From an uncultured Actinomycetes bacterium (lineage in GTDB: Bacteria > Actinomycetota > UBA4738 > HRBIN12), in NCBI GenBank assembly GCA_963797635.1, contig CAWCPZ010000003.1:67339-131338 (forward strand): a stretch of DNA of 64,000 nucleotides, written 5' to 3'. A program made the translations under genes and the position numbers. Every line of letters starts with the position of its first letter. Within the stretch, counting starts at the first letter, position 1. This document shows positions 15,749 to 37,482 of the stretch, piece by piece. Below the pieces are notes generated by a model. That model ran no database searches. It was not told the DNA's origin and saw nothing but the letters and a program-made list of their open reading frames with translations.

Positions 15749-15762
15749 CGGGGATGCTCCTC

Positions 15763-15878
15763 TTCTCTTTGACCCGCTACCGCTTCGCTGCTTGAGCGGG
15801 ACTCTCTTTGACCCGCTACCGCTTCGCTGCTTGAGCGGGACTCTTTTGACCCGCTACCGCTTCGCTGCTTGAGCGGGT
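15763..15878. repeat. Tandem direct repeat, three copies of a 39-bp unit (ctctttgacccgctaccgcttcgctgcttgagcgggact), each with a short inverted repeat (cccgct ... agcggg)
   Basis: Seen directly: units 15763-15801 and 15802-15840 are identical; a third, slightly shorter unit follows at 15841-~15878. Lies between the stop of ALDH 15892..17328 and the start of ALDH 14318..15748. Confidence 0.9.
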
Positions 15879-15891
15879 GTCGGGATGGCCG

Positions 15892-17328
15892 CTAGTCGAG
15901 CGAGACCATCACGTGCTTGATGTTGGTGTAGTCCTCCAGCGAATAGACGGACATGTCCTTGCCGTGTCCGCTCTGCTTGTACCCACCGTGGGGCATCTCA
16001 GGCGTGAGCGGGATGTGGGTGTTGACCCACACGCAGCCGAACTGCAGGCGACGGGACATGCGCATCGCGCGACCCACGTCCCGCGTCCAGACGGACGAGG
16101 CGAGGCCGTAGTCGGTCCCGTTCGCCCAGGAGAGCGCCTGATCCTCGTCGGTGAACCGCTGCACGGTCACCACCGGCCCGAAGACCTCACGCTGCACGAT
16201 CTCGGCGTCCTGCGAGGGGTTGGCCACGACCGTCGGCTTGAAGTGGAAGCCCGGGGTGCCCAGGGACTCGCCGCCGGTGAGGATCTCGGCGCCGTCGTCC
16301 TTGGCGCGGGACAGGAACCCTTCGACCCGCTGCAGCTGCTCCTGGCTGATCATCGAGCCGACCGCGACATCGTCCTCGAACGCGGTGCCGACCTTGAGGC
16401 CCTCGACCGCCGGGACGAGGTCGGTGAGCACCTTGTCGTAGGCGCCTTCGGCCACGAGCACGCGGCACGCGGCGGTGCAGTCCTGTCCGGCGTTGAAGTA
16501 GCCCGCGATCGAGATCCACTCGACGACCGACTCGAGATCGGCGTCGTCGAAGACCACGACGGGCGCCTTGCCACCCAGCTCCAGGTGGACGCGCTTCAGC
16601 GTGTCGCTGGCGTTCGTGTGGATCAGCTTGCCGGTGTTCACGTCACCGGTCAGCGACACGATCCCGACGTCGGGGTGGCGCACCAACCGGTCGCCGACGG
16701 GCAACCCGTCGCCGGTGACGACGTTGAAGACCCCGGGCGGGAAGATCTCGGCGGCGAGCTCGGCGAGCTTGATCGTCGACAGCGGCGTCATCTCCGACGG
16801 CTTCAACACGATCGTGTTGCCCGACGCGAGCGCAGGACCGATCTTCCAGACCGCCATCATCAGCGGGTAGTTCCACGGCGCGATCAGACCGGCGACGCCG
16901 ATCGGCTCGCGACGGACGATCGAGGTGAACCCCGCCATGTACTCACCGGCGCTGCGGCCCTCGGGCAGACGCGCCGCGCCCGCGAAGAACCGCAGGTTGT
17001 CGACGATCGGCGGGATCTCGTCCGACATCGTCAGCGCTGCCGGCTTGCCGGCGTCCTGGGACTCGATGTTGACGATCTCGTCGGCGTGCTCCTCGATCGC
17101 GTCGGCGAGCTTGAGGAGCATCAGCTGGCGATCCTTGGGCGTGGTGTCGAACCAGGTGTCGTCGAACGCCTTCTTGGCCGCGGCGACGGCCTTGTCCACG
17201 TCCTCGGCGGTGCCCTCCTGCACGGAGCCGATCACCTCGCCCGTGTGAGGGCTGATGATGTCGCGGGTGCCGCCGTCGGACGAGTTCACCCACTCGCCGT
17301 TGATGAACATCTGATGGCTGTCAGCCAT
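15892..17328 (-). CDS. Aldehyde dehydrogenase (gamma-aminobutyraldehyde/succinate-semialdehyde DH-like)
   Basis: ALDH motifs [38 protein letters not shown]. Confidence 0.9.
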
Positions 17329-17468
17329 GTTCCCCCTCCTCGTCGAAGAAGCCTGCTCGACCGTCTGAACGGGTGGTCAGACCGCCAGTATGCATCGGGG
17401 TGGCGCGAACGTTCCACCCGACGGATGGTCCGGGCCGGTCCCCGTGGTTGTCCGAGGTGGACAACGCA

Positions 17469-19025
17469 TCACCCTTCCTGCTGGGCCGCCTGGAGATCAC
17501 GGGCGCGCAGCGCCAGCCAGAACTCCATGCGGTCGAAACTGCTCGACAGATCCCGCCCGGTGAGCTCTTCGACCTTGCGCATGCGGTAGCGCAGCGTGTG
17601 GCGATGGACGAACAGTTCGGCGGCCGCCGTCTCCCAGCGGGCGTTGTGCTGCAGGAACGCCTGGAGCGAGCTCAGCAACTCCCCGTTGTGGTCCCGGTCG
17701 TAGGCGTCGAGGGGCCCGAGCATCGAATCGGCGAACGCTCGCAGCGCGTCGGGATCGGTCATCGACAACAGCAGCCGGTACGTGCCCAGGTCGGCGAACC
17801 CGGCGTGCGACCACCCCTCCAGGCGGCACACCTGGAGCGCGTACCTCGACTCGCGGAGGGAACGGCCGACCTCATCGGCCGTCACGGTGGAGCCGGCGCC
17901 GGCACGGAGCTCAGCACCGACGCGATGGCCGATCGCCTTCGTGACCTCCTCGAGATCGACCTCGGGCTCGGCGGGCAACAACAGATGCACCCCATCGTCA
18001 TGGGCCGAGGCGAGGAACCCGCCACCGGCCCGCGACCGTTCGTCCGTCGCGGCCAGCGCCACCGTCTCCGGATCGGGCGCCTCACCCACCGTTTCGAGGG
18101 AGACGACGAGCACCGCGGCGTCTCGGTCGAACCCGAAGCGCGCGAGCCCGCGACCGGCGTCGGCGTTCGTGAGCCCGCCGCGCGCGAGTTCGTCGAAGAA
18201 GTCGCCCTGGAGCCGCCGTTGGGCGTCGGCCACCGCACGGGACTTCGCGAGTTCGATCGCGAACAGGCTCAGCGCATGCCCCGCCACGATCCGGTCCATC
18301 TGGCTGAGCTGCTCGGGTTTGCCCACGGCGAGGAACGCCTCGACGCGGCCCTGCGCGCCGACGGGCTGGACCCAGATGTGATGGCCACGATCGACCAGGG
18401 TCACGCTGAACGAGGTGCTCTCGGGGCGGCTGTCACGCAGCTCGTCCCACACGCGTTCGGCCCGGAGCGAGGCCGCGCGGCTGGTGCTGGCGATCGGCAG
18501 GCCGTGGAGGTCGAGCAGCAACGCCCACCCCTTCGTGACGTCGGCGAGCGACCGCGCGATGCCTTCGGGCCCCTTGCCCTCCATGACGGCACGCGTGAGC
18601 ACGTGTTCGGCATCGACGGCCCGCTGCAGCGTGTCGTACTGCTCGGCGACGATGCGCGTGAACACGGCCTCGGTGATCGCGATGAACGGCACCGGGTAGG
18701 GCACCTCGAAGAGCGGGAAGTCCTCCGAGGTGGCGGCGGTCACCAGCGATCGGGGCGTCTTGTCGTGGCTGAACCCGAGCCCGAACCCGAGCCCGGCCAG
18801 GCCCGCCTTCGCGAGGCGCTTCACGTAGGCGCGCTGCTTCGCCGGCGTGGTGCCGATGCCCATGCCGGTGGTGAGGATCAGCTCGCCGCCCTTGAGCCAC
18901 GGCGTCGGGTCCTCCAGCTCGGACACGTGCACCCATCGGATCGGGCGCTGGGCCTGCTCCTGGCCGGCGAGCAGCTTCAGCGGCATGCCCGGCACGGCGA
19001 CGATGTCCTTGACGGTGACGGCCAT
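17469..19025 (-). CDS. PucR/GabR-type transcriptional regulator (PucR C-terminal HTH)
   Basis: C-terminal PucR-type HTH (LQAFLQHNARWETAAAELFVHRHTLRYRMRKVEELTGRDL). The ORF track fuses it to a long upstream shadow ORF; ATG at 19025 (MAVTVKDIVAVPG...) is taken as the start. Divergent from gabT, as for GabR of Corynebacterium. Confidence 0.8.
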   Translation of the reverse strand: MAVTVKDIVAVPGMPLKLLAGQEQAQRPIRWVHVSELEDPTPWLKGGELILTTGMGIGTTPAKQRAYVKRLAKAGLAGLGFGLGFSHDKTPRSLVTAATSEDFPLFEVPYPVPFIAITEAVFTRIVAEQYDTLQRAVDAEHVLTRAVMEGKGPEGIARSLADVTKGWALLLDLHGLPIASTSRAASLRAERVWDELRDSRPESTSFSVTLVDRGHHIWVQPVGAQGRVEAFLAVGKPEQLSQMDRIVAGHALSLFAIELAKSRAVADAQRRLQGDFFDELARGGLTNADAGRGLARFGFDRDAAVLVVSLETVGEAPDPETVALAATDERSRAGGGFLASAHDDGVHLLLPAEPEVDLEEVTKAIGHRVGAELRAGAGSTVTADEVGRSLRESRYALQVCRLEGWSHAGFADLGTYRLLLSMTDPDALRAFADSMLGPLDAYDRDHNGELLSSLQAFLQHNARWETAAAELFVHRHTLRYRMRKVEELTGRDLSSSFDRMEFWLALRARDLQAAQQEG

Positions 19026-19032
19026 GGATCGA

Positions 19033-19102
19033 TTGTACGGAACGTATAGCCAGGACACCTCGGACGAAGGGCTGCGCCGCTCAGGATGGACGAACCGTAC
19101 AA
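19033..19102. promoter_or_regulatory. Divergent pucR/gabT promoter region with two inverted copies of TTGTACGG (19033-19040) / CCGTACAA (19095-19102)
   Basis: Seen in sequence. Candidate regulator half-sites. No experimental support. Confidence 0.3.
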
Positions 19103-19199
19103 CCCCGAGCGCGAAGGCTAGCCCCGCCATCGCCTGACAGGACCCCGCGCCGGGCCCGACACTCGAGCGGTACCCCCAGCAGGAGGGAAACGCTCGATC

Positions 19200-20549
19200 A
19201 TGGACATCCCCCAGGAACGCAAACTCGTCACCGAGATCCCCGGTCCGAAGTCCCGTGAGTGGTTCGCGCGGCGCGAGCAGGCCGTCGCCAAGGGCGTCGG
19301 CGCGATCCATCCGATCGTCACCGCGCGTGCATCGGGCTCGATCGTCGAAGACGTCGACGGCAACCGCCTGATCGACTTCGCCACCGGCATCGCCGTGCTC
19401 AACGTCGGGCACACCGCGCCGGAGGTCGTCGCCGCGATCCAGCAGCAGGCCGAACTCGAAACGCACACCTGCTTCCACGTCTCCGCGAACGAGCCCTACA
19501 TCGAGTTGGCCGAGCGGCTGAACGCGCTGACGCCCGGCGACCACGCGAAGAAGACGATGTTCGCCAACTCGGGTGCCGAGGCGGTCGAGAACGCGGTGAA
19601 GATCGCTCGCAAGCACACCGGTCGGTCGGCGATCGTCACCTTCGACCACGCGTTCCACGGACGCACGCTGCTCGCGATGTCCCTCACCGCCAAGGTGATG
19701 CCCTACAAGCAGGGCATGGGGCCGTTCGCCCCCGAGATCTACCGATTGCCGTTCGCCTATCCGTACCGCTGGAAGTCCGAGGGTGCCGATCCGGAGACCG
19801 TGACCCGCGAAGCGCTGGCCTACGCGGTCGACACGATGCACAAGCACATCGGCGAAGAGAACATCGCCGCCGTGATCATGGAGCCGATCCAGGGCGAGGG
19901 CGGCTTCATCGTCCCCTCCCCCGGCTTCGTCGCGGGGATCGCCGAGTTCTGCGCCGCGCACGGGATCGTGTTCATCGCCGACGAGATCCAGTCGGCGATG
20001 GGACGGGCCGGCCGCTGGTACGCGATCGAGGACGAGGGGGTCGTGCCCGACCTGGTGACCACCGCGAAGTCGATGGGCGGCGGATTGCCGATCAGCGCCG
20101 TCACCGGTCGCGCCGAGATCATGGACGCCGTGCACGCCGGCGGCCTGGGTGGCACGTACGGCGGCAACCCCGTCGCGGCCGCCGCATCGCTCGCCGTGCT
20201 CGACAAGATCGAGCGCGAGGATCTGTTGGCTCGCTCGCGCGAGGTGGGCGCCACGATCATGGAGCGTTTCACCGCGATGGCCGAGCGCTACGACGCGATC
20301 GGCGACATCCGCGGCCGAGGAGCGATGCTCGCGATCGAACTCGTCACCGACCGCGGCACCAAGGAGCCGCTGGGCGCCGAGGCGATGAACGCGATCGCCG
20401 ACGGTTGCCTCGCCCAGGGCGTGATCGTGCTGACGGCCGGGACCTACGGCAACGTGGTCCGCCTCCTGCCGCCGATCAACATCGAGGCCGCGCTGCTCGA
20501 GGACGGCCTGCAGGTGCTGGACGACGCGGTGGGTGCCGTCGTGGCGTAA
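19200..20549 (+). CDS. gabT: 4-aminobutyrate aminotransferase (class-III PLP aminotransferase)
   Basis: Class-III aminotransferase fold with the PLP-lysine region (TTAKSMGGGLPISAV); 449 aa. Context includes ALDH genes and a PucR regulator. Confidence 0.9.
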   Translation: MDIPQERKLVTEIPGPKSREWFARREQAVAKGVGAIHPIVTARASGSIVEDVDGNRLIDFATGIAVLNVGHTAPEVVAAIQQQAELETHTCFHVSANEPYIELAERLNALTPGDHAKKTMFANSGAEAVENAVKIARKHTGRSAIVTFDHAFHGRTLLAMSLTAKVMPYKQGMGPFAPEIYRLPFAYPYRWKSEGADPETVTREALAYAVDTMHKHIGEENIAAVIMEPIQGEGGFIVPSPGFVAGIAEFCAAHGIVFIADEIQSAMGRAGRWYAIEDEGVVPDLVTTAKSMGGGLPISAVTGRAEIMDAVHAGGLGGTYGGNPVAAAASLAVLDKIEREDLLARSREVGATIMERFTAMAERYDAIGDIRGRGAMLAIELVTDRGTKEPLGAEAMNAIADGCLAQGVIVLTAGTYGNVVRLLPPINIEAALLEDGLQVLDDAVGAVVA

Positions 20550-20585
20550 CCGGCACATCGCGGAACGGTTGCTACCGTTCCGTCC

Positions 20586-21878
20586 ATGACGGACGACGAC
20601 GGACCCGGCCACGACGGTCGGGTCCGTTCGCGGTTCCGGCGTCTGCTGCTCGACATCACGCCGCTCCGCGTCTCCCGCGACTACCGGCTCCTGTGGACGG
20701 GGACGTTCATCTCCGCGCTCGGGTCCCAGTTCGCACGGGTGGGGTTGTACGTGCAGGTGTACGCGCTCACCGGCTCGCCGGCGGCCGTGGGTCTGCTGGG
20801 GCTCTCGGGGCTGGCCGGCAACATCGCCGGCACGTTCGTGGGTGGTTCGTTCATCGACGCGCACGACCGCCGGTCGGTGATCGTGTGGACCCAGGTCGGG
20901 CACGTGCTCGTGGCCGCGGTGCTGGTCGCGACCGCGCTGGTCCCGTCCCCGTCGCTCGCGGTGCTGCACGTGGCGAACGCCCTCACGTGGATGCTGGCGG
21001 CGATCAACATGCCCGCCCGTCAGGCGTCGGTGCCGCGGCTGGTCGGCGACGATCTGATGCCGTCGGCCGTCGCGTTGTCCCAGATGCAGTGGCAGGTCAC
21101 CGGGATCGTCGGTCCGGCGTTCGCCGGCCTGCTGATCGGCGCAACCGGGGCCGTGGGATGGGCCTACGCGGTGGACCTCGTCAGCTACGGCGGCATGCTG
21201 TTCGCCGCCCTGGCGATGCAGCCGCTGCCGCCCGAGCCCGACGACGCCGGACCCACGGTGGGACCTCGAGCGGTGGCCGAGGGGTTCCGCTACGTGGCGC
21301 ACCACCGGCTGCTGCAGTCGACGTTCGTGATCGACCTGATCGCGATGATCTTCGGCATGCCGGCGGCGCTGTTCCCGGTGCTCGCGGCCACGCAGTTCGA
21401 CCGGGGGCCCGAGGTGGTGGGGCTGCTGTTCGCGGCGCCGGCCGTGGGCGCGCTCGCCCAGGTGCTGCTGTCGGGGTCGGTCGTGCGGATCCGCCGTCAG
21501 GGCGAGGCCGTGATCTGGGCGGTGGCGGGCTGGGGCGCGGCGATCGCCGCGTTCGGTCTGGTGGGCGCGAACCTCGCGCTGGCGATGGTCTTCCTGGCGA
21601 TCGCCGGCGCTGCCGACGTGGTGAGCGCGATCTTCCGCTCCACGATCCTGCAGGTGACCGTCCCCGACCGGCTCCGCGGGCGGCTGAGCGGCATCTTCTC
21701 GTTGGTGGTGACCGGTGGCCCGAAGCTCGGCGACGTGGAGGCAGGACTGGTCGCCACCTGGTTCACCCCGGCGATCAGCGTGGTGACCGGCGGAGTGGCG
21801 TGCATCCTGGGCGCGGTCATCGCGGCGTTCGCCTATCCGGAACTGCGCCGGTACCGCACCGACACGTACGAGGGGTGA
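20586..21878 (+). CDS. MFS transporter (EntS/enterobactin-exporter-like)
   Basis: 12 predicted TM helices and an MFS signature; 430 aa. Confidence 0.8.
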   Translation: MTDDDGPGHDGRVRSRFRRLLLDITPLRVSRDYRLLWTGTFISALGSQFARVGLYVQVYALTGSPAAVGLLGLSGLAGNIAGTFVGGSFIDAHDRRSVIVWTQVGHVLVAAVLVATALVPSPSLAVLHVANALTWMLAAINMPARQASVPRLVGDDLMPSAVALSQMQWQVTGIVGPAFAGLLIGATGAVGWAYAVDLVSYGGMLFAALAMQPLPPEPDDAGPTVGPRAVAEGFRYVAHHRLLQSTFVIDLIAMIFGMPAALFPVLAATQFDRGPEVVGLLFAAPAVGALAQVLLSGSVVRIRRQGEAVIWAVAGWGAAIAAFGLVGANLALAMVFLAIAGAADVVSAIFRSTILQVTVPDRLRGRLSGIFSLVVTGGPKLGDVEAGLVATWFTPAISVVTGGVACILGAVIAAFAYPELRRYRTDTYEG

Positions 21879-21994: not shown

Positions 21995-23701
21995 GTGGCG
22001 ACCCCGCGCGTCTCGACCGTCGAGCTGCGCGTCCTCGACGGGCCGAACCTCTACTACCCCCGCCCCGCGATCAAACTCACGCTCGAGGTCCCGGGGTGGA
22101 TGCGCGCCTCCGAGACCACCGTGCGCGAGGTGGCCGAGCGGCTCTCGATGCCGCCGAGCCTGTCGCCGGGCGCGCCCGGGAGCGAGCAGCGACGCCGTGC
22201 GACCGCGCGCATCGGGGCCCAGCTGACGCGCCGGATCGCGGTGGCCTCCGGCGTGCGACGCCTGGCGGTCCGCGGCCGCCCCGGGCCGGCGCCCGACCGC
22301 ATCGTGATCGCCTTCCCCTGGCGCCGGCGCGCCGCGGCCGAGGCGCTGGCCGCCGAGACCGCAGGCGCGATGGGCGACGTGCTGCGTCGCTCCCCCGCCC
22401 GGCTGATCGCCGAGGCCGGCGCGAGGCTCGCCGCCGTGGATCCCGGTCCTGAGCCGACGGTGACGGATCCGACGATCCCGGTGATCCAGGTGACGGGCAC
22501 GAACGGCAAGACCACGACGGTTCGCCTCCTCGCCCACCTGGTGCGGACCGCGGGCCGGTCCGTGGCCTTCTCCTCCACCGACGGGGTCTACCGCGACGAC
22601 GGCGAGCTGGTCGAACGCGGTGACTACAGCGGGTTCGGTGGCGCGGCGATGGCGCTGGCCCAGGAGCCCGACATCGCGGTGCTCGAGACCGCGCGGGGCG
22701 GCATGCTCCTGCGCGGTGCGGGGGTCCTGCACAACGACGTCGCCGTCGTCACCAACGTCAGCGCCGACCACCTGGGTCTGCACGGCGTCGACACCGTCGA
22801 TCAACTCGCGGAGGTGAAAGGCATCGTCACCCGCATCACCCGGCCCGACGGGTGGGACGTGCTGAACGCCGACGACCCCCGCGTGCTGGCGATGCGACGC
22901 AACGCGACGGGCCGTCCGTGGCTGTTCTCGACCCACCCCGATCATCCGGCGCTGCGTGAGGCCCTGCGCGAGGGCGGCCGCGCGATGTCGATCCAGGACG
23001 GCCGCCTCACCTGGTTCTCCGACCATCGGGCCCACCCCATGGTGGCGATGCTCGACGTGCCCATGACCCTGGCGGGGGTCTCCCGGATCAACGCGCAGAA
23101 CGCCATGGCGGCCGCCGCGGCGGCGCTGGCGATCGGCCTGCCGCATCGGGCCGTGGTCAAGGGCCTGAAGACGTTCGTCCAGGACCCCGAACACAACCCC
23201 GGGCGAGCCAACCTGTTCTCGATCGACGGCACGGTCGTGATGATCGACTACGCCCACAACGAGGCCGGCATGAGCGGCCTGGTGGAGACCTTGGACGGGC
23301 TTCGGCCGCGAGGCGGCCACGTCTGGCTCGCGATCTGCACGGCGGGCGACCGGACGAACGAGATCCTGCGGTCGTTCGCGTTCCTGGCGGCGGTGGGTTC
23401 GGACCACCTGGCGGTCGCCGAGCTCCCGCAGTACCTGCGCGGGCGCTCACGCGAGGACATCATCGAGCGCCTGAAGGACGGCGCGGAGGCGGCGGGCGTG
23501 CACGAGGTCGCCGTCTACCCCGATGAACTCGCCGCGCTGCGCGCGATGGTGGGCGAGGCCCGCCCCGGCGATGTCGTGGGCGTCACCGCCCTGGGGATGC
23601 GCCCGGAGATCTTCGCCTGGCTCGAAGACGCCGGAGCCACGCGGATGAGGCCCGCCGACGTCCGGCGGGTGGTGCGCCGGGCGCAGGCTTCCCGTGCGTG
23701 A
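21995..23701 (+). CDS. Cyanophycin-synthetase-like protein with CphA N domain fused directly to the Mur-ligase-like M domain; ATP-grasp (G) domain absent
   Basis: Residues 1-~150 parallel the CphA N domain (LRVLDGPNLYYPRPAIKLTLEV vs cphA FRGPNYWSYEPCIRLLVDL in this window). From ~170 the M domain follows (IPVIQVTGTNGKTTTVRLLAHLV ... VVTNVSADHLGLHGVDTVDQLAEVK ... VMIDYAHN), co-linear with the M domain of the cphA at 33705..36558. No ATP-grasp segment between them or in flanking DNA. GTG start. Confidence 0.75.
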   Translation: MATPRVSTVELRVLDGPNLYYPRPAIKLTLEVPGWMRASETTVREVAERLSMPPSLSPGAPGSEQRRRATARIGAQLTRRIAVASGVRRLAVRGRPGPAPDRIVIAFPWRRRAAAEALAAETAGAMGDVLRRSPARLIAEAGARLAAVDPGPEPTVTDPTIPVIQVTGTNGKTTTVRLLAHLVRTAGRSVAFSSTDGVYRDDGELVERGDYSGFGGAAMALAQEPDIAVLETARGGMLLRGAGVLHNDVAVVTNVSADHLGLHGVDTVDQLAEVKGIVTRITRPDGWDVLNADDPRVLAMRRNATGRPWLFSTHPDHPALREALREGGRAMSIQDGRLTWFSDHRAHPMVAMLDVPMTLAGVSRINAQNAMAAAAAALAIGLPHRAVVKGLKTFVQDPEHNPGRANLFSIDGTVVMIDYAHNEAGMSGLVETLDGLRPRGGHVWLAICTAGDRTNEILRSFAFLAAVGSDHLAVAELPQYLRGRSREDIIERLKDGAEAAGVHEVAVYPDELAALRAMVGEARPGDVVGVTALGMRPEIFAWLEDAGATRMRPADVRRVVRRAQASRA

Positions 23702-24267
23702 GTGCAACGCGGAAGCCGCTCGGAGCATCCAGGTTCGAGTGTATGAGCGCGACGATCGGTGACTTCGTGACCGAAGGCGTGAGCGCGGACCGGCTCGGCG
23801 CCCTGTACGAGGCGCACGCGGCCGACGCCTTGCGCCTCGCCTACCTGCTCACCGGCGACCGCGCGGTCGCTCAGGACCTGGTCCAGGACGCCTTCGTGAA
23901 GATGGCGGGCAGGCTCGCCCACCTGCGCCGTGCCGAGGCGTTCGGCGCCTACCTCCGCGTCACCGTGGTGAACATGGCGCGCATGCGCGGGCGTCGGCTC
24001 AAGGTGGAGCGCGACTACCTCGCGCGTCACACGGCCGAACTGGTCGAGCCTCATCGAGACCGCGACGTCGCCGCCACCGAGAGCCTGCGGCTGGCGCTGG
24101 CCACCCTGCCGTTCAAGCAGCGCGCGGCGATCGTCCTGCGGTTCTTCGAGGACGTGCCGGACGAGGTCACCGCCCAGGTGCTCGGGTGCCGGCAGGCGAC
24201 CGTGCGCTCGCACATCCACCGAGGGCTGGAGACCCTGCGTGCCGAGCTCGGAGAGTGGGTGCCGTGA
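23698..24267 (+). CDS. ECF-type RNA polymerase sigma factor (sigma-70 regions 2 and 4)
   Basis: Region 2 (DLVQDAFVKM) and region 4 HTH (AAIVLRFFEDVPDEVTAQVLGCRQATVRSHIHRG). GTG at 23698 overlaps the upstream stop (GTGA). Alternative ATG at 23743. Confidence 0.8.
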   Translation: MSATRKPLGASRFECMSATIGDFVTEGVSADRLGALYEAHAADALRLAYLLTGDRAVAQDLVQDAFVKMAGRLAHLRRAEAFGAYLRVTVVNMARMRGRRLKVERDYLARHTAELVEPHRDRDVAATESLRLALATLPFKQRAAIVLRFFEDVPDEVTAQVLGCRQATVRSHIHRGLETLRAELGEWVP

Positions 24268-25338
24268 CCGACGAACTCCGCGACGAACTCGACCGGCTCG
24301 CGGCCGGAGCGCCGACCCCGGACGAACGGCGCGACCAGGTGGTGCGAGCCGCCCGACGCCGCAGCCGGGTGGGCTTGGTCGTGGCGGGCGTGATCGCGGT
24401 CACCGGTGTCCTCGTCGGGGTCCTGGCCGTCGGCGCGGTGCTCGACCGCCGGGATGCGCGGCCGATCGGACCGACGCCGACGGGGGTCGTGCGGGTCTCC
24501 GAGTCGGCGTCCACGCCCCCACCGATCGAAGCCCGAGGCGAGCTCGCCTACTTCCGGGACGGACCGTTCGGTGGCTCCGCCCAGTTGATGGTTCGCAACG
24601 CCGACGGATCGGATCCGCGGACGATCGGTGATCTGTCGATCTCGACCTCCAGGCTGTCGATCGCGCCCGATGGCGTCGCAGGCGGTCTTCGATCACGGGC
24701 TGGGCGAGGGCTCGGGGCAGCTCGAGGTGATCGACCTGTCGACGGGGGCGACCGCACACGATCTTCGACGTGGGCCAGCCGCAACGGCCCCGACTGGTCG
24801 CCCGATGGATCGACGATCGTCGTTCTCCACCGATTCCGGAGCGCTCTTCACGATCCCGTCCGGTGGAGCCGACTCGGGCACCCCGGTCCGAGACGAGGGC
24901 GACGGACGGTTCCTCGAGGGCTACGAGGCGAGCTGGTCTCCGGACGGTGATGCGCTCGTGGCCGTCGATGATGCCGGCGAGGTCTTCGTCGTGGAGGTCG
25001 ACGGCACCTCCCCCGCCACGACGTCTCACGTCGATCGGTCGATGCAGGCTGGACGGACTGGGGCCCCGACGGGATCGTGGTCTCGACCATGGTGCACGGC
25101 GCGTGGGCGCTCTACGAACTCGACCCGGAGAACGAGGCCCCTCCTCGACTCCTGCTCGATCGCCCCGGAGACGAAACCGCCCCGGAGGTCTCCCCCGACG
25201 GCAAGTTCCTCGCCTTCGTCGGCATCGACGGGGACCAGCAGGACCTGTTCGTCTTGGATCTCGGGTCCGGGCGCCGTCGATCAGCTGACCGACGATGCGG
25301 CCCAGGAGCTCTCGCCGGCGTGGATCCCCTCGTCCTGA
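24264..25338 (+). pseudogene. Anti-sigma factor with one TM helix and periplasmic TolB-like PD40 beta-propeller; at least 5 frameshifts
   Basis: GTG overlaps the sigma stop (GTGA). TM segment VGLVVAGVIAVTGVLVGVLAVGAV. Repeated WSPDG/PDGKFLAF PD40 motifs are found alternately in frames 0 and 1 (24186..24950, 24628..25338, 25077..25346). Confidence 0.6.
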
Positions 25339-25396
25339 CGCCGTAGGTGTACGGGCCCGTACCGAGGGTTCGGCCGGACCACCTAGACTGCGGGGG

Positions 25397-26878
25397 ATGT
25401 CACCCAACAGAACCCGCACCACCGTCAGCGCCATGGAGGCGCCGGTGGTGGTGGCGTCCAACCGAGGGCCCGTCAGCTTCGATCGGGACGATCGAGGCAG
25501 GTTGGCGGCCCGGCGCGGCTCCGGCGGGCTGGTCACGGCGCTGTCCGGGGTGTTCTACCGGGACGACACCACCTGGGTGTCCTCGGCCATGACCGAGGGC
25601 GATCGCGCGGTGGCGCTGAAGGGCCGCACGGTGGCTCCCGATTCGAACCAGCGCATGCGCTACGTCGTGATGCCGCAGGAGCGCTACGACGGCTACTACA
25701 ACGAGATCTCGAACCGGATCCTGTGGTTCGTCCACCACGCGCTGTGGGACATCCCCCGCTCGCCGATGTTCGACGACGCCACCGAGGCCGCCTGGTACGA
25801 CTACATCGAGACCAACCGCGCGTTCGCCAACGCCCTCGCCGACGAAGCCGAGCACGACCCCGTGTACCTGATCCAGGACTACCACCTGAGCCTGGTGCCC
25901 GGCATGCTGCGTGAACTCGTGCCCGAGGCCAAGATCGTGCACTTCTCGCACACGCCCTTCGCCGGTGCCACCTATCTCCGGGTCCTGCCGGTCGGCATGC
26001 GGACCGCGCTGCTCCGAGGGCTCGCCGGCGCCGACGTGCTGGGCTTCCAGTCCAAGCAGTGGGCCGAGAACTACCTGCTGTCGGCGCGGAGCCTGCCCGA
26101 GTTCCATGTGCTCCGCGGCGGCCGCATGCAGATCGAGGAACGCGACGCCGCGGTGCGCGCCTTCCCCGTGGCGGTGAGCGCCGAGCCGCTGCGCGAGACG
26201 GCGGCCCAGCCCGAGGCCGAGAGCGTGCGCGAGGAGCTCCGCGACCTGGTGGGTGAGCGTTCCCTGATCCTGCGTGTCGACCGGCTCGAACCGTCGAAGA
26301 ACATCCTTCGAGGGTTCCTGTCCTACGAGCTCTTCCTGCGAAGGAACCCGCAGTGGCGCGACAAGTGCGTCTTCCTCTGCCTGTTCAGCCCGTCACGCGA
26401 GGACGTGCCCGAGTACCAGGACTACGGCGAGGAGTGTCTCGCCGAGGCCAAGCGCATCAACGCCGAGTTCGGCACGAAGTCCTGGATGCCGATCGACATC
26501 CGGGTGCAGGAGGACTACGCCTTCGCCGTGGCCGCCTATGCCCTGTACGACGTGCTGTTCGTCAACCCGGCCTACGACGGCATGAACCTGGTCGCCATGG
26601 AAGGCCCCCTGGTGAACCGTCGCAACGGCGTGCTGGTGCTCTCCCGCAACGCCGGAGCGTTCGGTCGCCTGGGCCGGCAGGCGCTGGGCACGAACCCGTT
26701 CGACCTCGCCGAGACGTCCGAAGCGCTGCGGGAGGCCCTGGAGATGCCCGCCGACGAACGCACCCGGCGAGCTCGGGGACTGGCTCGCACCGTGCAGGCG
26801 CACACCCCGTCGAACTGGCTCGCGAGTCAGCTCGAGGCCGTGGACCAGGTGCGGCCGCCCACGCGCCGCCGTCGCTGA
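25397..26878 (+). CDS. otsA: Alpha,alpha-trehalose-phosphate synthase (GT20)
   Basis: VVVASNRGPVSF ..., LIQDYHLSLVP, RVDRLEPSKNI are GT20 signatures. Confidence 0.9.
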   Translation: MSPNRTRTTVSAMEAPVVVASNRGPVSFDRDDRGRLAARRGSGGLVTALSGVFYRDDTTWVSSAMTEGDRAVALKGRTVAPDSNQRMRYVVMPQERYDGYYNEISNRILWFVHHALWDIPRSPMFDDATEAAWYDYIETNRAFANALADEAEHDPVYLIQDYHLSLVPGMLRELVPEAKIVHFSHTPFAGATYLRVLPVGMRTALLRGLAGADVLGFQSKQWAENYLLSARSLPEFHVLRGGRMQIEERDAAVRAFPVAVSAEPLRETAAQPEAESVREELRDLVGERSLILRVDRLEPSKNILRGFLSYELFLRRNPQWRDKCVFLCLFSPSREDVPEYQDYGEECLAEAKRINAEFGTKSWMPIDIRVQEDYAFAVAAYALYDVLFVNPAYDGMNLVAMEGPLVNRRNGVLVLSRNAGAFGRLGRQALGTNPFDLAETSEALREALEMPADERTRRARGLARTVQAHTPSNWLASQLEAVDQVRPPTRRRR

Positions 26879-26887
26879 TCCGACCGG

Positions 26888-27601
26888 TCAGTCGCCGGTG
26901 GCGTGCGCGTTCGCGACGTCGCCGATGATCCCGGCGAGCTCTTTCGGGCGAGACCACATCGGCCAGTGGCTCGTCGGCAGGTCGACCCACGTGACGTCGC
27001 GAACCTCGGTGAGGCCGCCGAGCCACGCGAATCCTTCCTTGACGGCGTCCTGGTACTCCTGCGACGTGTACCCCGTGCAGATCATCGTGGTCGGCACATC
27101 GAGGCGCGCATCGTTGCTCAGCGAGACGCCTTCGCGCAGCACGCCCCCCGGCACGGGAACGGCCCGCCGGCGGAACGTCTCGATCTGCTCGGCGGAGAGG
27201 CCGTCGAAGTTCTCTTCGGCCTCCAGTTCCTGCTGTGGAGGCAGCGGCTTCTCGGTGTCGGCGAAGTCGGGGTCGGCAGCACCCGTGCCCGGCGCGGAAT
27301 CGACGTAGACCATGGCGGCGATCCGCTCCGGGATGCGGTCGCTCGCGGCGTAGCCGGAGAACCCAGAAGCGCTGTGCACGGCGAGCACGACGGGGGCTCC
27401 CGCCGCCTCGACCGCTGCGCAGATCGCGTCGACGTGGTCGGACAAGGTGATCGAGGACCGGTCGGCATCGGCCGACTCGAGACCGGGAAGCGTGATGGCG
27501 GTGACGTCATGGCCGTCGGCACGCAACGCGCCGGCGACCTCGTCCCACGCCCATGCGCCGAGCCAGAATCCGGGAACCAAGACGATCGGTGGGGTAGCCA
27601 T
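26888..27601 (-). CDS. Alpha/beta hydrolase (esterase)
   Basis: VLVPGFWLGAWAWDEV ... AVHSASGF (GxSxG) ... H near the C-terminus. Start taken at the ATG at 27601. Confidence 0.7.
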   Translation of the reverse strand: MATPPIVLVPGFWLGAWAWDEVAGALRADGHDVTAITLPGLESADADRSSITLSDHVDAICAAVEAAGAPVVLAVHSASGFSGYAASDRIPERIAAMVYVDSAPGTGAADPDFADTEKPLPPQQELEAEENFDGLSAEQIETFRRRAVPVPGGVLREGVSLSNDARLDVPTTMICTGYTSQEYQDAVKEGFAWLGGLTEVRDVTWVDLPTSHWPMWSRPKELAGIIGDVANAHATGD

Positions 27602-27666
27602 GGTCCAAACCCTAACGGCGCACGGCGACATCCGCGTCGGACGGCATCGGGTCCCGACGGGCCCTG

Positions 27667-28428
27667 CTAGATCCGGCGGAGCAGCGCCACCAGCCCGGCG
27701 GGGCCGTCGACGACGATGTCGGCCGATCCCGCGAGTTGGGGTGGCGTCTCCGGTCCGTGCACCGCCACCTTCAAGGTGGTGAGCCCGTCGGCGGCCAGCC
27801 GGTCGAGGGCCTCGAAGGCCCGCTGGTCGGCGACATCGTCGCCCGCGTACAGCACCGCGTCGAGTCGAGCCTCCGTGACGATCCGCTCGACCGCGCCTTC
27901 CTTGAGCGGGCGGCCACCGGGCACCAGTTCCCAGACCTTCTTGCCCGCGATCAACGCCATGCCGGCATCGAGGGCCACCGCCTCCAGCGCCGGAGCGAGC
28001 CGCCCCCGTGCGTCGTCGGGATCGTCGGCACCGCGGAAATGCACCGCGATCGAGGCGCCCTTGGACTCCACCCTGGTGCCCGGCACGGTGGCGGCGATCC
28101 CGGTCACCTGGTCGGCGACCCCTGCCGGCAGCGTGATGGCCTCCTCGCCCAGGCCGTACAGCCCGGCCAGGACGACGCCGGGCACGGCGACGAGTTCCTC
28201 CAGCTCGGCGGGGGTCCGCCCGGAGATCACCGCGACGATCGCGAGGCGCTCGACCAGCCGGGCGATCGCATCGCGGGCGCCGTCGCGGATCTTGGCGAGC
28301 TCGGGCCTGGCCACGATGGGGCTGAGGGTGCCGTCGAAATCGAGCAGCACCCCCGCCCGGCCGTCCCGCGTGGTGAACGCCCGCAGGGCGGCGTCGTCCT
28401 CAGTCGCGCGCATCGTCATCGCTCCCAT
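27667..28428 (-). CDS. otsB: Trehalose-6-phosphate phosphatase (HAD-IIB)
   Basis: LLDFDGTLSPIV (DxDGT motif), later GDDVADQRAF; 253 aa. Confidence 0.85.
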   Translation of the reverse strand: MGAMTMRATEDDAALRAFTTRDGRAGVLLDFDGTLSPIVARPELAKIRDGARDAIARLVERLAIVAVISGRTPAELEELVAVPGVVLAGLYGLGEEAITLPAGVADQVTGIAATVPGTRVESKGASIAVHFRGADDPDDARGRLAPALEAVALDAGMALIAGKKVWELVPGGRPLKEGAVERIVTEARLDAVLYAGDDVADQRAFEALDRLAADGLTTLKVAVHGPETPPQLAGSADIVVDGPAGLVALLRRI

Positions 28429-28493
28429 GCATGCCTAGCAACATACGCCGGAAATCCAGGTGACAGCTGACCTCGGGGCTACACTCGTTCCCC

Positions 28494-33358: not shown

Positions 33359-33691
33359 TCAGGCCGTGCTGCAGCGAACGCAGAGCACGGCCCAGGGCCG
33401 CGCCTCGAGGCGCTCGGTCGGGATCAGCGCTCCGCAACGATCGCACAGCCCGTAGGTGCCGTCGTCGAGCTTCGCCAGGGCCCGCTCGACATCGGCAAGC
33501 TTCGCGGTGAGGGCGTCGGCCTGGCCCACGCGTTCGATGCGGCCGATCGCCTCGTTCGTCCCTTCGCCCACGCGCTTGCCGAACCCGATCGTGGCCGCGG
33601 GGTCTCGCGTCACCGTCGTGATGTCGGCCAGCTCGGCCAGCAGGTCGTCACGGCTGGCGTCGAGCTCGGCACGGATCGCGGCGGTGTCCAT
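33359..33691 (-). CDS. TraR/DksA-family C4 zinc-finger protein
   Basis: CDRCGALIPTERLEARPWAVLCVRC is a CxxC-x17-CxxC finger after a coiled-coil; 110 aa. Confidence 0.7.
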   Translation of the reverse strand: MDTAAIRAELDASRDDLLAELADITTVTRDPAATIGFGKRVGEGTNEAIGRIERVGQADALTAKLADVERALAKLDDGTYGLCDRCGALIPTERLEARPWAVLCVRCSTA

Positions 33692-33704
33692 CGAGGGTCC
33701 GATG

Positions 33705-36558
33705 TCACGACCGGCGCATGAGGTCGGGATCGCCGCCCACCGCGTCGGCGAGATCGCCCTCGGACGCGCGCAGCACCTCGGGCGAGGCGACCCCGCGACG
33801 CTGCTCGATCTCCTTGTAGACCTCGGTGGCGTAGTCGACGCACAGGACCACCAGGTCGCCGGGGCGCGAGCGGTCGAGGGCCTGGCGCGCGGCGTCCATC
33901 TCGTCGAGCACCACCTCGACGCTGCCGGCGCGCGCGCCGCCCTGGATCGCTTCGACCACCCCTTCACGGATCAGCTCCGCGGTCTCCCCAGGCTCACGTC
34001 CGCGGCTCTTCGTGTCCTCCCGGACGATCACCTCGTCGAAGTACCGCGCCGCCACGCGCCCGAGCTCCTTCATGTCCTCGTCGCGCCGGTCGCCCGCCGT
34101 GGCGACGACCGCCACGCGCAGGTTGGCCGACCACGAGGCTTCCCCGGGACGTTCGCCGGTCGCGGTGTCCGCCGCCAGCCGCTCGACGAAGTCGCCCAGG
34201 GTCTCGAGGCCCGCCGCGTTGTGCGCGTAGTCGAGGACCACCTTCACGCCGTCGAGATCGAACACGTTCAACCGACCGGGTGCCTGATAGATCGAGGTCG
34301 TGAACGACCGCAGCCCCTGACGGATGTCGTGCAGGTGCGCGCCGGCGACGTGGGCCGCCGCCGCGGCCGCCATCGCGTTCTGCACCATCATGCGGGCCTT
34401 GCCGTCGAAGGTGGCCGGCAGGGTGTGGACCCAGGCGATCGGCATCGTGCGCCGGCCCTCCTTGATCACCATCATCTCCCCGCGTTCGTTCCGCTCCAGG
34501 ACCACGGCCTTGCGACCGCGCCGGACCCACCGGTCGACGAAGTCGTGCGACTCCTGCATCGTGAACAGGATCACGTTGCCGCTGCAGTGCCGGCGCATGT
34601 CGAGCACCAGCGGATCGTCGGCGTTCAGCACGCCCCAGCCGTTCCGGGGCACGGCTTCGACCACCACGCGCTTGACCGCCGCGAGCTGTTCCAGCGTCTC
34701 GATCTCGCGCAGGCCGAGGTGGTCGCCGGTGACGTTGAGCACGACCCCGACGTCATTGCGTCCGTAGCCCAGGCCCTCGCGCAGGATGCCGCCGCGCGCC
34801 ACCTCGAACACCGCGGTGTCCACCCGTGGGTTCTGCAGCACCATCTGCGCGGACTTGGGACCGCTGGCGTCCACCCGCTTCACCAGCCGCTCGTCGATGT
34901 AGATGCCGTCGGTGGTGGTCATGCCCACGCGCCGGCCCATCCCGCGGAAGATGTGCGCCAGCATGCGCGTGGTGGTGGTCTTGCCGTTGGACCCCGTCAC
35001 CGCCAGGATCGGGATCCGGCTCGGCGAACCCGGCGGGAACAACCCGTCGACGACGGACTTCGCCACGTACTGCGGCTCGCCTTCGGTGGGATGGGTGTGC
35101 ATCCGGAACCCCGGCGCGGCGTTGACCTCGACGATGGCCCCACCCGTCTCGCGCACCGCCTCGGAGATGTCGGGCGCGAGGAAGTCGATGCCGGCGACGT
35201 CCAAGCCCACGACGCGCGCCGCCTCTTCGGCGATCTCCACGTTGTCCTCGTGCGCGTCCCAGGTGCGGTCGATCGAGATGCCCCCGGTCGACATGTTGCC
35301 GGTGGCGGCCAGCAATACCTGTTCGCCCTTGGGCGGGACGTCCTCGAGCGCGAACCCCTGCTTCTTCACCAGGTCGCGCGCGGCATCGTCGATCTTGATG
35401 CGGGTCAGCACCTTCTCGTGACCGATGCCACGGCGTGGATCCTGGTTGGCCTTCTCCACCAGCTGGGCGATCGTGCGCTTGCCGTCGCCGGTGACGTGGG
35501 CCGGGACCCGCTCCGCGATCGCCACCATGTGCCCGCCGATCACCAGCACGCGATAGTCGTTGCCGGTGACGTAGGACTCCACCACCACCTGACCGCGGCG
35601 CGCTTCGGACACCGCCCGCTTGAACCCGCCGCGCACGGCGCGATCGGTGCGCAGGTCCAACCCCACCCCGCGGCCGTGGTTGCCGTCCAGCGGCTTGGTC
35701 ACCACGGGGAACCCGATCCGCTTGGCGGCCACGACGGCATCGTCCTCGGTGCGCACCACCTCGCTGCGCGGGACCGGCAGCCCGGCCGAGGCCAGCAGGC
35801 GGTTCGTCATCTTCTTGTCGCCGGCGACGTCCACGGCGAGCGCACTGGTCTTGGAGGTCATCGTGGCGCGGATCCGCTGCTGGTAGGTCCCCTGGCCCAG
35901 CTGGACCAGGGAGTGCTCGTTCAACCGGATCCACGGGATGTCGCGGGTGACGGCTTCGTCGATGATCGCCTGCGTCGACGGGCCGAACTGCCGGCGTTCG
36001 GCGAGCAGGATCAGCGCTTCCCGCTCGGCTTCGAAGTCGAACCCGTCCTCGGCCTTGATCAGGTGGTTCAACAGACGGACGGCGAGCGCGCCCGCCGCCA
36101 GGCCGACGGTCTCCTCGGCGTAGCCGTAGATCACGTTGTACTGCCCCGGCGGGCCGGCGCTCCTGGTCTTGCCCCGGGAGATGTGCGCACCGGTCTCGCG
36201 CTGGAGTTCCAAGCGCCACGTGCTCGGCGACGTGGCCCATCCACGTGCCGTCCTCGAGGCGCTCCTTGAACCCGCCCTTCTTGCCGAGCGAGCACGAGTG
36301 CTCCCCGACGCCGGGCAACGCCTTCAGGAGCTTCTTGTTGAAGCCCGGGATCGTGTTCGACGGCCAGAACTCGAGGGACCCGAGATCGACCAGCAGGCGG
36401 ATGCACGGCTCGTAGGACCAGTAGTTCGGACCCCGGAACACGTGCGTCTGCACGACGGCGAGATCGGGTGAGAGCGGCGGCTTCTTGGCGGCGGGCTCGC
36501 GCTTGGTCTTCTGGCGGGCGGCGCGGGTCTTCGTGGCCCCTTTGCCCGGTGCAGGCAT
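33705..36558 (-). CDS. cphA: Cyanophycin synthetase (N, ATP-grasp G and Mur-ligase M domains); single-base frameshift near 36214
   Basis: N domain is in the ORF 34753..36558 frame (FRGPNYWSYEPCIRLLVDLGSLEFWPSNTIPGF...MGHVAEHVAL). The rest is in ORF 33705..36212 (ELQRETGAHISRGKT... ATP-grasp ... AVTGSNGKTTTTRMLAHIF ... Mur ligase). Minus-strand gcgcttggaactc needs one base fewer (gcgctggaactc) to be in frame. Confidence 0.85.
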
Positions 36559-36609: not shown

Positions 36610-37482
36610 TCACTCCGAGGCCTCCCGCTCATCGTCGAGCGCGTGCTCGGCCGCGAGCAACCGGCGACCCCGCAGGTCGTACCAGTAGCCCGACGGCAAC
36701 GAGTGCAGCACCGCGCCCGACACCATGAGCGGTTTATACCCCTTCCCGCGATAGGCGTCCGTCTTGACGTGCGCCCCGTCCACGATCGTGACCGCCCCGC
36801 GCCCGATCACATGCAGCGTCTGATCGCTGAACACGACGGCGCAGGTGTCCTCGTCGATCCCGATCCCGAGCAGCGAGGGAGACTGCGCCACCAGGGCGAG
36901 CAGGCGTCCGATCCGGCCACGCTCGCCGAAATGCTGGTCGATCACCAGGCCCGACAGGATCCCCAGCCCGGCCGACAGCTGGACCATCCGGTTCTTCGGC
37001 GTGGGCCCGGCGTTGCCGAAGGCCACCATGTGGCTCGCCATGGCGCTCGCCCCCGCGCTGGTGCCCGCAAGCACCGCCCCACGGTCGTGGGCCAGGAACA
37101 GCGCGTCGCCGAGCTTCGTGCCCGCCACCACCTGCGTGAGCCGCGACTGGTTGCCACCGGTGAGGTAGACCCCGGTGGCGTCACGGAGCGCCGCCGTCAT
37201 GGCGGGATCGTCGGCCTCGTCCCGATCGTCGGGTCGTACTCCGGTGACGGTGCCGATCCCCAGGTCGGTGAACAGCGCCCGATAGACCTCCGTGGCTTGA
37301 TCGCCCAGCGAGGACGCCGTCGAGATGACCACCACGTGCCCGTCCTCGCCGCCGGCGAACTTCGCGAACCGGGACAGGATCACCTTGTCGCGGACCTTGT
37401 CCTCGGCACCGCCGATCACCATCACCGGTCCGGCTCCCAAGCCGGGCACCGAGGAGAGGCTGCGTTCGCCCTGGTCGGTCAT
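36610..37482 (-). CDS. cphB: Cyanophycinase (peptidase S51)
   Basis: VMVIGGAEDK ..., GTSAGASAM (Ser nucleophile), and a Glu in GAVTIVDGAHV, as in CphB. ATG at 37482. The track ORF is extended upstream because the frame has no stop. Confidence 0.85.
   Translation of the reverse strand: MTDQGERSLSSVPGLGAGPVMVIGGAEDKVRDKVILSRFAKFAGGEDGHVVVISTASSLGDQATEVYRALFTDLGIGTVTGVRPDDRDEADDPAMTAALRDATGVYLTGGNQSRLTQVVAGTKLGDALFLAHDRGAVLAGTSAGASAMASHMVAFGNAGPTPKNRMVQLSAGLGILSGLVIDQHFGERGRIGRLLALVAQSPSLLGIGIDEDTCAVVFSDQTLHVIGRGAVTIVDGAHVKTDAYRGKGYKPLMVSGAVLHSLPSGYWYDLRGRRLLAAEHALDDEREASE

Follow-up and report, generated by a model that had tools for sequence, protein, structure and literature searches.

What reaction is open to a cyanophycin synthetase homologue that has no ATP-grasp domain? 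This question is raised by a gene on a 64,000-nucleotide stretch of DNA (the window) from an uncultured Actinomycetes bacterium (contig CAWCPZ010000003.1, positions 67,339 to 131,338). The gene (21995..23701 on the plus strand, stop codon included; hereafter the target) encodes a 568-amino-acid paralogue of CphA that is composed of an N domain and a Mur-ligase (M) domain and lacks the ATP-grasp (G) domain, as delineated by its open reading frame (ORF), domain matches, homologues of ~570 amino acids and an AlphaFold model. It belongs to a conserved and apparently uncharacterised family of G-less N+M proteins, whose genes almost always lie close to complete cphA1 genes. By analogy with CphA1, there is roughly an even chance that the protein is an active, trans-acting side-chain (isopeptide) ligase working on a cyanophycin-type acceptor.

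The M domain and its active site

The target ORF starts with GTG and has a third-position GC content of 0.93, as in real genes of this 70% GC window. Pfam matches only Mur_ligase_M (PF08245; 73.5 bits, cut-off 24) and Mur_ligase_C (PF02875; 46.9 bits, cut-off 28.4) in the encoded protein, giving the layout of the Mur ligase superfamily, a central P-loop ATP-binding domain and a C-terminal domain. Mur ligases carry an N-terminal uridine diphosphate (UDP)-substrate-binding domain, in place of which the target has what appears to be a CphA N domain. The first match, Mcore (amino acids 166-377; 22490..23125), contains the Mur-ligase ATP site, the P-loop GTNGKTTT (amino acids 168-175; 22496..22519), which is invariant in the family alignment, together with E231, N254, D258-H259, K275 and N291. 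The second, Mlid (amino acids 403-531; 23201..23587), keeps PGRxN, DxxHN and GDR by column comparison. TIGR02068, the NCBIfam model of cyanophycin synthetase, matches amino acids 157-530 at model positions 475-846, over the M domain only, and its 354 bits fall below the family cut-off of 850, so that the protein does not score as a full-length CphA1. The three motifs that the initial annotation had named in this domain (GTNGKTTT, DHLGLHG and IDYAHN) are all present.

The closest solved relatives by sequence are CphA1 structures (amino acids 154-515 against 481-839 of SuCphA1, E 3e-62). MurE and other Mur ligases share PF08245, PF02875 and presumably the acyl-phosphate mechanism with the target, but the sequence similarity of their structures is E 1e-15 or weaker; in Foldseek, MurE structures match the target model at E ~1e-20. 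Within the window, the sole paralogous match is the minus-strand cphA1 about 10 kb away, to which amino acids 161-544 align co-linearly (35015-33804, 40% identity), as had been proposed. The M-domain half of the observation is solid.

Seventy columns are conserved in at least 90% of 76 CphA1 M domains, and 52 of these are kept in the family, including all of the catalytic ones: P-loop K172/T173, E231, N254, D258-H259, K275, N291, N369, PGRxN, DxxHN, GDR and RG. Many of the catalytic-motif residues are invariant across 56 aligned family members. On the residue roles described for TeCphA1 (PMC9427784), E231 corresponds to the Mg ligand E558, and the P-loop is equivalent to that bearing Lys499, which is essential for activity. 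Judged by its sequence, the M domain is complete, with every catalytic Mur-ligase motif, and the protein would be expected to perform ATP-dependent ligation through an acyl phosphate. In the GDxTGPxS loop the family has Gly in place of Ser, and the positions aligned to S603 and E607 of SuCphA1, both of which contact cyanophycin (PMC9262961), are G276 and a nearly invariant R280 in the target.

Absence of the G domain

The N-region match stops at amino acid 159 and the M match begins at amino acid 157; the sequence at this junction (…PEPTVTDPTIPVIQVTGTNGKT) is similar to the G-to-M linker of CphA1 (…PGSPSRIPILAVTGSNGKT). Pfam finds no ATP-grasp in the target protein, and a custom G-domain hidden Markov model (HMM), built from 60 CphA1s, detected nothing in the target ORF, in the ORFs directly beside it or in their counterparts at 20 related loci (designated here by L numbers). 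Its matches were separate full cphA1 genes, plus three weak, unrelated ones elsewhere, and no ATP-grasp ORF abuts the family gene at any locus examined. Since the G-domain HMM finds only separate full cphA1 genes, a split gene or a cryptic ATP-grasp is excluded. The N+M architecture thus withstands one of the two tests that the initial annotation had named as able to refute it. Its statement that the gene 'cleanly lacks' the G domain is right as to the absence; the gene is, however, no local deletion of the neighbouring cphA and instead represents an ancient, separately evolving paralogue family.

A further explanation is that the gene is an artefact or a decaying remnant, either a pseudogene or a piece of a split or frameshifted cphA that was wrongly called as a gene. 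The window does hold frameshifted genes, namely cphA1 (near 36210) and the one that follows the sigma factor. Nevertheless, the target ORF is intact and aligns over its full length with ~570-amino-acid homologues from many assemblies, among them complete genomes of cultured Kribbella and Terrabacter. It has no abutting ATP-grasp ORF at any locus, its model has a predicted local distance difference test (pLDDT) score of 91, its catalytic residues are invariant and it is distinct from CphA1 in the tree described below. The intact conserved ORF, the invariant residues and the separate phylogeny refute this explanation, whose residual probability is minimal.

The N domain

The first 159 amino acids (21995..22471) form a putative CphA-type N domain, non-catalytic and with a net charge of +10, which is identified by hhalign and predicted fold. 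PF18921 does not match the target protein at E<=1, nor any of 35 family N-terminal fragments at E<=10, although it does match the CphA1s encoded beside family members; ordinary HMM methods therefore give the N-domain call no support. An exhaustive HMM search with an N-region profile against 1.84 billion representatives matched 333 proteins, and the 150 of these that were listed are family members and fragments, with no ~900-amino-acid CphA1 among them. In contrast to these searches, hhalign, run with 60 CphA1 N domains taken from retrieved loci, aligns target amino acids 7-116 co-linearly with CphA1 2-121 (probability 64%, E 6e-5). The N region is also modelled with confidence on its own (pLDDT 94.8). 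Foldseek aligns the full model, N and M together, with SuCphA1 over ~885 columns at a template modelling (TM) score of 0.76-0.77 normalised by query length, compared with 0.56-0.64 for M-only alignments. As the full-model score exceeds that of M alone, N and M appear to adopt the mutual placement seen in CphA1, G being a gap in the alignment. The CphA-type call is therefore probably right at the level of predicted fold and distant homology; to have called the domain 'clear' overstated a signal on which PF18921 is silent.

The family N domains differ from those of CphA1 in two respects. None of 35 contains HxxEH or HExxH, and likewise none shows a conserved His or Cys, whereas all co-resident CphA1s that were checked carry Cx19HxxEH. 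This primer-generating site occurs in about 83% of CphA1s and so is not strictly defining. In addition, the family N domains are basic (+1 to +11, mean +6.5), and those of CphA1 are acidic (mean -5.3; -2 to -6 in the same genomes as family members). The family M domains, for their part, are more acidic than the M domains of co-resident CphA1s.

The distribution of the primer-generating site bears on the proposal that the target synthesizes beta-Asp-X dipeptides or short primers from free amino acids, thereby priming or feeding CphA1. CphA1s are limited by primer availability (PMC9262961), and an M-type site joining the beta-carboxylate of Asp to Arg would give beta-Asp-Arg. Yet the co-resident CphA1s should be primer independent because they possess Cx19HxxEH, the retention of a polymer-binding N domain argues for a polymeric acceptor, and the M domain of CphA1 reportedly requires a chain with an undecorated Asp at its end (PMC9427784). 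A role in primer synthesis is accordingly very unlikely.

A separate family of G-less paralogues

A protein search with the target returned 7,895 matches, the best 120 of which come from Actinomycetota metagenomes and metagenome-assembled genomes (MAGs). Almost all of these 120 are 560-596 amino acids long with the same two Pfam domains, apart from one of 502 and one of 731 amino acids. At JGI, and in some MAG records of NCBI, family members bear the name 'cyanophycin synthetase'; NCBI also uses 'Mur ligase family protein', and neither Pfam nor NCBIfam has a model specific to the family. A scan of species-representative genomes identified full-length relatives in cultured Kribbella and Terrabacter and in a Nocardioides MAG (45-50% identical), as well as in Chloroflexota (35-38%); the cultured Kribbella and Terrabacter members sit in complete genomes. 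Terrabacter-type (Intrasporangiaceae) members (L007 7899-10175, L006 7833-10262 and P0132) have an additional C-terminal TPR_5 domain (PF12688) of ~120 amino acids, which is likely a protein-interaction module.

In a neighbour-joining tree of 99 M domains, 76 of them from CphA1, the target family is monophyletic (bootstrap 96/100) and separate from all 76 CphA1 M domains, co-resident ones included, and the split of this family plus a second G-less clade from CphA1 likewise has a bootstrap of 96/100; this being a distance method, long-branch attraction is possible. Family proteins are 37-42% identical to each co-resident CphA1 M domain, and their pairwise divergence tracks that of the co-resident CphA1s (r 0.92). 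This uniform identity and correlated divergence indicate, at the sequence level, an ancient paralogy followed by long co-inheritance with cphA1. The phylogeny suggested in the initial annotation thus yields a distinct clade outside CphA1 in contexts linked to cphA1, and together with the uniform identity it rules out a recent deletion derivative of the neighbouring cphA1.

No G-less CphA is described in the searchable full-text literature, as the initial annotation had supposed, although a brief mention in older subscription papers, which lie outside its reach, is possible. The name 'CphA3' was considered and rejected, as it denotes an Aeromonas beta-lactamase in the literature. The architecture itself is abundant in databases, where hundreds of entries share it under generic or 'cyanophycin synthetase' names, and together with the second G-less clade this removes the uniqueness that had been implied.

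Related enzymes

In comparison with the target, CphA1 (TIGR02068; 7LG5, 7LGM and 7WAC) contains a G domain of ~320 amino acids, has an acidic N domain mostly with Cx19HxxEH where that of the target is basic and devoid of the motif, and possesses an M domain that belongs to a separate clade and differs in the lid after GDR. CphA2 (7TA5) is the mirror image, with N, an active G and an M domain that is truncated and inactive (PMC10273328), whereas the target has N and a full M with its lid but no G, and hence does not belong to CphA2.

A second G-less CphA-like family, likewise uncharacterised and of ~560-650 amino acids with a full CphA-like M domain, was observed in Gammaproteobacteria, Myxococcota and Acidobacteria (L013 9312-11288, L016 9324-11054, L018 9073-11229, L022 7479-9194, L023 about 9900-11128, L040 9590-11452 and L069 62-1750). 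It resembles the target family in having no ATP-grasp, the same Ser-to-Gly loop change, linkage to cphA1, a shared M-domain grouping (bootstrap 96) and no curated family. It differs in its phyla and in gene arrangement, being on the same strand as cphA1, directly downstream of and abutting it, where the target family is convergent. Its N terminus begins with an RRLTGPN-type sequence, resembling the RxLxGPN start of the target; its N-terminal ~170-250 residues have no HMM match to the target N or CphA1 N, and hhalign gives weak, co-linear alignments (probability 10-16%).

In Betaproteobacteria (for example Nitrosomonas, Cupriavidus and Sideroxydans) a second cphA is, like the target, an accessory paralogue beside a full cphA1; unlike the target, it consists of N+G and an M truncated after about 260 residues, a CphA2-like architecture that thus occurs outside cyanobacteria. 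It lies immediately upstream of cphA1 in ten loci (L028, L034, L039, L042, L044, L053, L056, L059, L062 and L071). CphA1 therefore seems to be recurrently paired with single-activity paralogues.

Linkage to cphA1

A complete cphA1 lies within ~10.5 kb of the family gene in 16 of the 18 loci with usable flanks, spanning several actinobacterial lineages and one Chloroflexia MAG, with intervening genes that vary between loci. As a control, cphA1 is within 5 kb of folA, an unrelated housekeeping gene, in 0 of 955 genomes (PMC10206079). The two genes are convergent across relatives, with cphB beside cphA1 where genes were called and, in the clade of the window, a dksA/traR-type gene beside cphA1 as well. 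They are directly adjacent in L001, L007/L008, L010, L014, L083 and L088, separated by 2.5-5 kb with differing intervening genes in L004/L009, L006, L081, L086 and L087, and about 9-10 kb apart in the window and L085, which have one inserted block in common. The exceptions are L082, which stops inside an MMPL gene and where synteny predicts cphA1 just past the end, and the Chloroflexota locus L011. The 10-kb distance to cphA, which the initial annotation had treated as incidental, is thus part of a conserved linkage that constitutes the key contextual evidence. Elsewhere, a Limnocylindrales (Chloroflexota) contig ends in a fragment of a Mur-ligase M domain, convergent with and downstream of cphA1 (L058 6254-7036, minus strand), which may represent a further member of this family.

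The co-resident CphA1s are full enzymes that retain the N peptidase motif as well as G and M; the paralogue would thus contribute an additional function and not make up for a lost one. Compensation for a defective CphA1 was accordingly rejected; the cphA1 of the window is frameshifted, but its orthologues are not.

Could the target then serve CphA1 as an accessory or regulatory subunit, docking on its oligomers and modulating rate, chain length or granule formation, whether or not it is itself catalytic? The Mcore of CphA1 touches both the N domain and three Gcore modules within the tetramer (PMC9427784), and such a role would be in keeping with the tight co-inheritance of the family with CphA1, the TPR_5 fusion in Terrabacter-type members and the pairing of CphA1 with single-activity paralogues in other phyla. 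However, every ATP-binding and catalytic residue is conserved, which is unexpected for a purely structural partner; the inactive M of CphA2, by contrast, is truncated (PMC10273328). In addition, family genes are usually convergent and not co-operonic with cphA1. A subunit role is consequently judged quite unlikely.

Proposed function

The most economical reading of the retained N+M module, its geometry, the conserved catalytic residues and the absence of G is a trans-acting isopeptide ligase; we infer its catalytic activity, the cyanophycin-related acceptor and the direction of the reaction. In CphA1, a (beta-Asp-Arg)n-Asp chain is held between N and Mcore, and the M domain ligates Arg to the beta-carboxylate using ATP (PMC9427784). 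In the target, the non-catalytic N domain would pack on the complete M domain, creating the groove that in CphA1 accommodates a chain whose terminal Asp is undecorated. The acceptor carboxylate would be phosphorylated with ATP, by analogy with CphA1, through K172/T173, the Mg ligand E231, D258-H259 and K275, and an amino acid or amine bound by the lid in the GDR region would then accept the acyl group on its amino group. Without an ATP-grasp domain the enzyme could not extend a poly-Asp backbone, and would therefore need an existing acceptor to modify in trans, the likeliest being a cyanophycin-type chain or fragment that the neighbouring CphA1 or CphB produces or releases.

Several observations weigh against this proposal. 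Directly after GDR, the lid of CphA1 reads GDRRxxD and that of the family GDRTxxI, Arg280 stands where SuCphA1 has the cyanophycin-contacting E607, and the N domains of the family are basic where those of CphA1 are acidic. The family also evolves faster than CphA1 (mean identity 57% versus 73%), L011 has no cphA1 in its flanks, and the linkage could partly be a relic of an ancient tandem duplication instead of selection for co-function. Moreover, the genes that precede the family gene, an MFS_3 exporter in the clade of the window and fabG/inhA-like genes in Kribbella, Terrabacter and L005, hint at other partners.

In view of the altered lid residues, the E607-to-R280 replacement and the reversed charge pattern, the enzyme may use another acceptor than CphA1, another amine, or both. 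Addition of Arg or Lys to poly-Asp or a primer, as put forward in the initial annotation, would be one candidate reaction. A dedicated trans-acting ligase whose amine specificity is unlike that of the CphA1 M domain is conceivable, if somewhat doubtful; it would attach a non-Arg residue, for example Lys, ornithine, citrulline, a polyamine or a γ-aminobutyric acid (GABA)-type amine, to Asp beta-carboxylates or cap the chain end.

Taken further, the same differences would be consistent with a ligase for a substrate unrelated to cyanophycin, such as a small molecule, an exported peptide or an envelope component, the proximity of cphA1 then being a duplication fossil. The EntS-like MFS_3 transporter gene immediately upstream of the target (20586..21878, plus strand; Pfam) would suit such a role, and this pairing recurs across the clade of the window (L081 and L085-L088 by Pfam, and L001 by N-terminal sequence similarity alone). 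So would the fabG- and inhA-like genes immediately upstream in Nocardioidaceae and Intrasporangiaceae and the L011 flanks without cphA1. The fabG- and inhA-like genes, called on N-terminal sequence motifs alone, precede the family gene on the same strand in L004, L005, L007 and L009 (about 6400-7990), with a gap of a few bases between the family gene and the second of these genes in L005 and L009; in L003, the Nocardioides MAG, a fabG-like gene was called and an inhA-like gene was not. These upstream neighbours are clade-specific, whereas the cphA1 linkage has outlived many rearrangements and is seen in two phyla. The CphA-specific N domain and the N-M polymer-groove arrangement are also kept, and the M domain is far closer to CphA1 than to other Mur ligases. 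An unrelated substrate is thus an unlikely explanation, and the isopeptide ligase acting on a cyanophycin-type acceptor is preferred.

Other features of the window

The gene order around the target is a PucR regulator (minus strand), a class-III aminotransferase, MFS_3, the target, an extracytoplasmic function (ECF) sigma factor, an anti-sigma-like gene, otsA, a 247-amino-acid minus-strand ORF that looks like an alpha/beta hydrolase, otsB-like, GH15-like and MMPL genes, and then, on the minus strand, a dksA/traR-type gene, cphA1 and cphB. As the initial annotation stated, Pfam places MFS_3 upstream and the ECF sigma factor downstream, with no ATP-grasp in the flanking ORFs. The sigma factor gene (23698..24267, plus strand; Pfam) overlaps or abuts the stop codon of the target; the GTGA overlap previously described exists as ORF geometry, but an ATG at 23744 is an alternative start for the sigma factor. 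A conserved partnership with this sigma factor was rejected, as it follows the family gene in some members of the clade (L082 and L085) and is missing there in others (L081, L086 and L088).

The conserved block upstream (14318-21878), which comprises two aldehyde dehydrogenases, the PucR-type regulator, the class-III aminotransferase and MFS_3, is also found in L081, L082 and L085-L088. It looks like an amine catabolic cluster of the GABA/putrescine type, and a connection with the use of arginine released from cyanophycin is speculative. Between the target and the cphA1 cluster lie trehalose genes (otsA, otsB and a GH15 trehalase-like gene) and an MMPL transporter (25295-30461), the otsB and GH15 assignments being based on synteny with L082 and L085 and not on Pfam. 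This insert is also present in L082 and L085, and is absent from L088, where the target adjoins dksA-cphA1-cphB.

The authentic cphA1 (33705..36558, minus strand) has N+G+M with Cx19HxxEH, is 84% identical to the CphA1 of L081 and carries an apparent frameshift. Directly upstream of it is cphB, which encodes a cyanophycinase (Peptidase_S51; 36610..37473, minus strand; Pfam, and 79% identity to L081 cphB by tblastn), and directly downstream is the DksA/TraR-type zinc-finger gene (33359..33700, minus strand; Pfam), which also occurs in L081, L085, L086 and L088 as a conserved part of the cphB-cphA1 cluster in this clade. The frameshift consists of an apparent 1-bp insertion near 36210 (…cacgtggcgcttggaactccag…; region 36150-36330) that splits the N domain over two frames, leaving the first ~115 codons, Cx19HxxEH included, out of frame with the remainder; the L081 and L086 orthologues are intact. 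Either a sequencing error or a recent pseudogene would account for it. After the sigma factor, an anti-sigma or PD40/Tricorn-like gene (24270-25335, plus strand), assigned by homology to L082, matches its homologue in two frames (24270-24947 and 24628-25335), which suggests a second frameshift within 12 kb of that in cphA1. The cphA1 beside the family gene is likewise broken into several frames on MAG contigs (L010 9994-12735, L014 10039-13671 and L087 15024-17228), probably through assembly errors, and these cases caution against a biological reading of the frameshifts in the window.

Implications

Current accounts attribute cyanophycin synthesis to a single enzyme, CphA1, and treat CphA2, which polymerises beta-Asp-Arg, as a G-only recycling variant. 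The G-less family suggests an extra, unrecognised step in the making or remodelling of cyanophycin. One practical consequence concerns annotation: because G-less proteins cannot make the polymer, the label 'cyanophycin synthetase' is misleading when applied to them, and may inflate gene-based estimates of cyanophycin capacity in wastewater and soil metagenomes. If the proposed function is correct, the target would offer an isopeptide ligase that occurs naturally on its own and could serve to tailor cyanophycin or poly-Asp materials, and cultured hosts exist in Kribbella and Terrabacter. An M-only paralogue inherited along with cphA1 and cphB would extend the pathway by a step, be it side-chain decoration, repair, capping or regulation in trans. 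Should its amine specificity differ, the cyanophycin of Actinobacteria and Chloroflexota would be chemically distinct or controlled in length. From a broader perspective, CphA1 and its G-only or M-only paralogues would then constitute a modular, multi-enzyme system for polymer tailoring.

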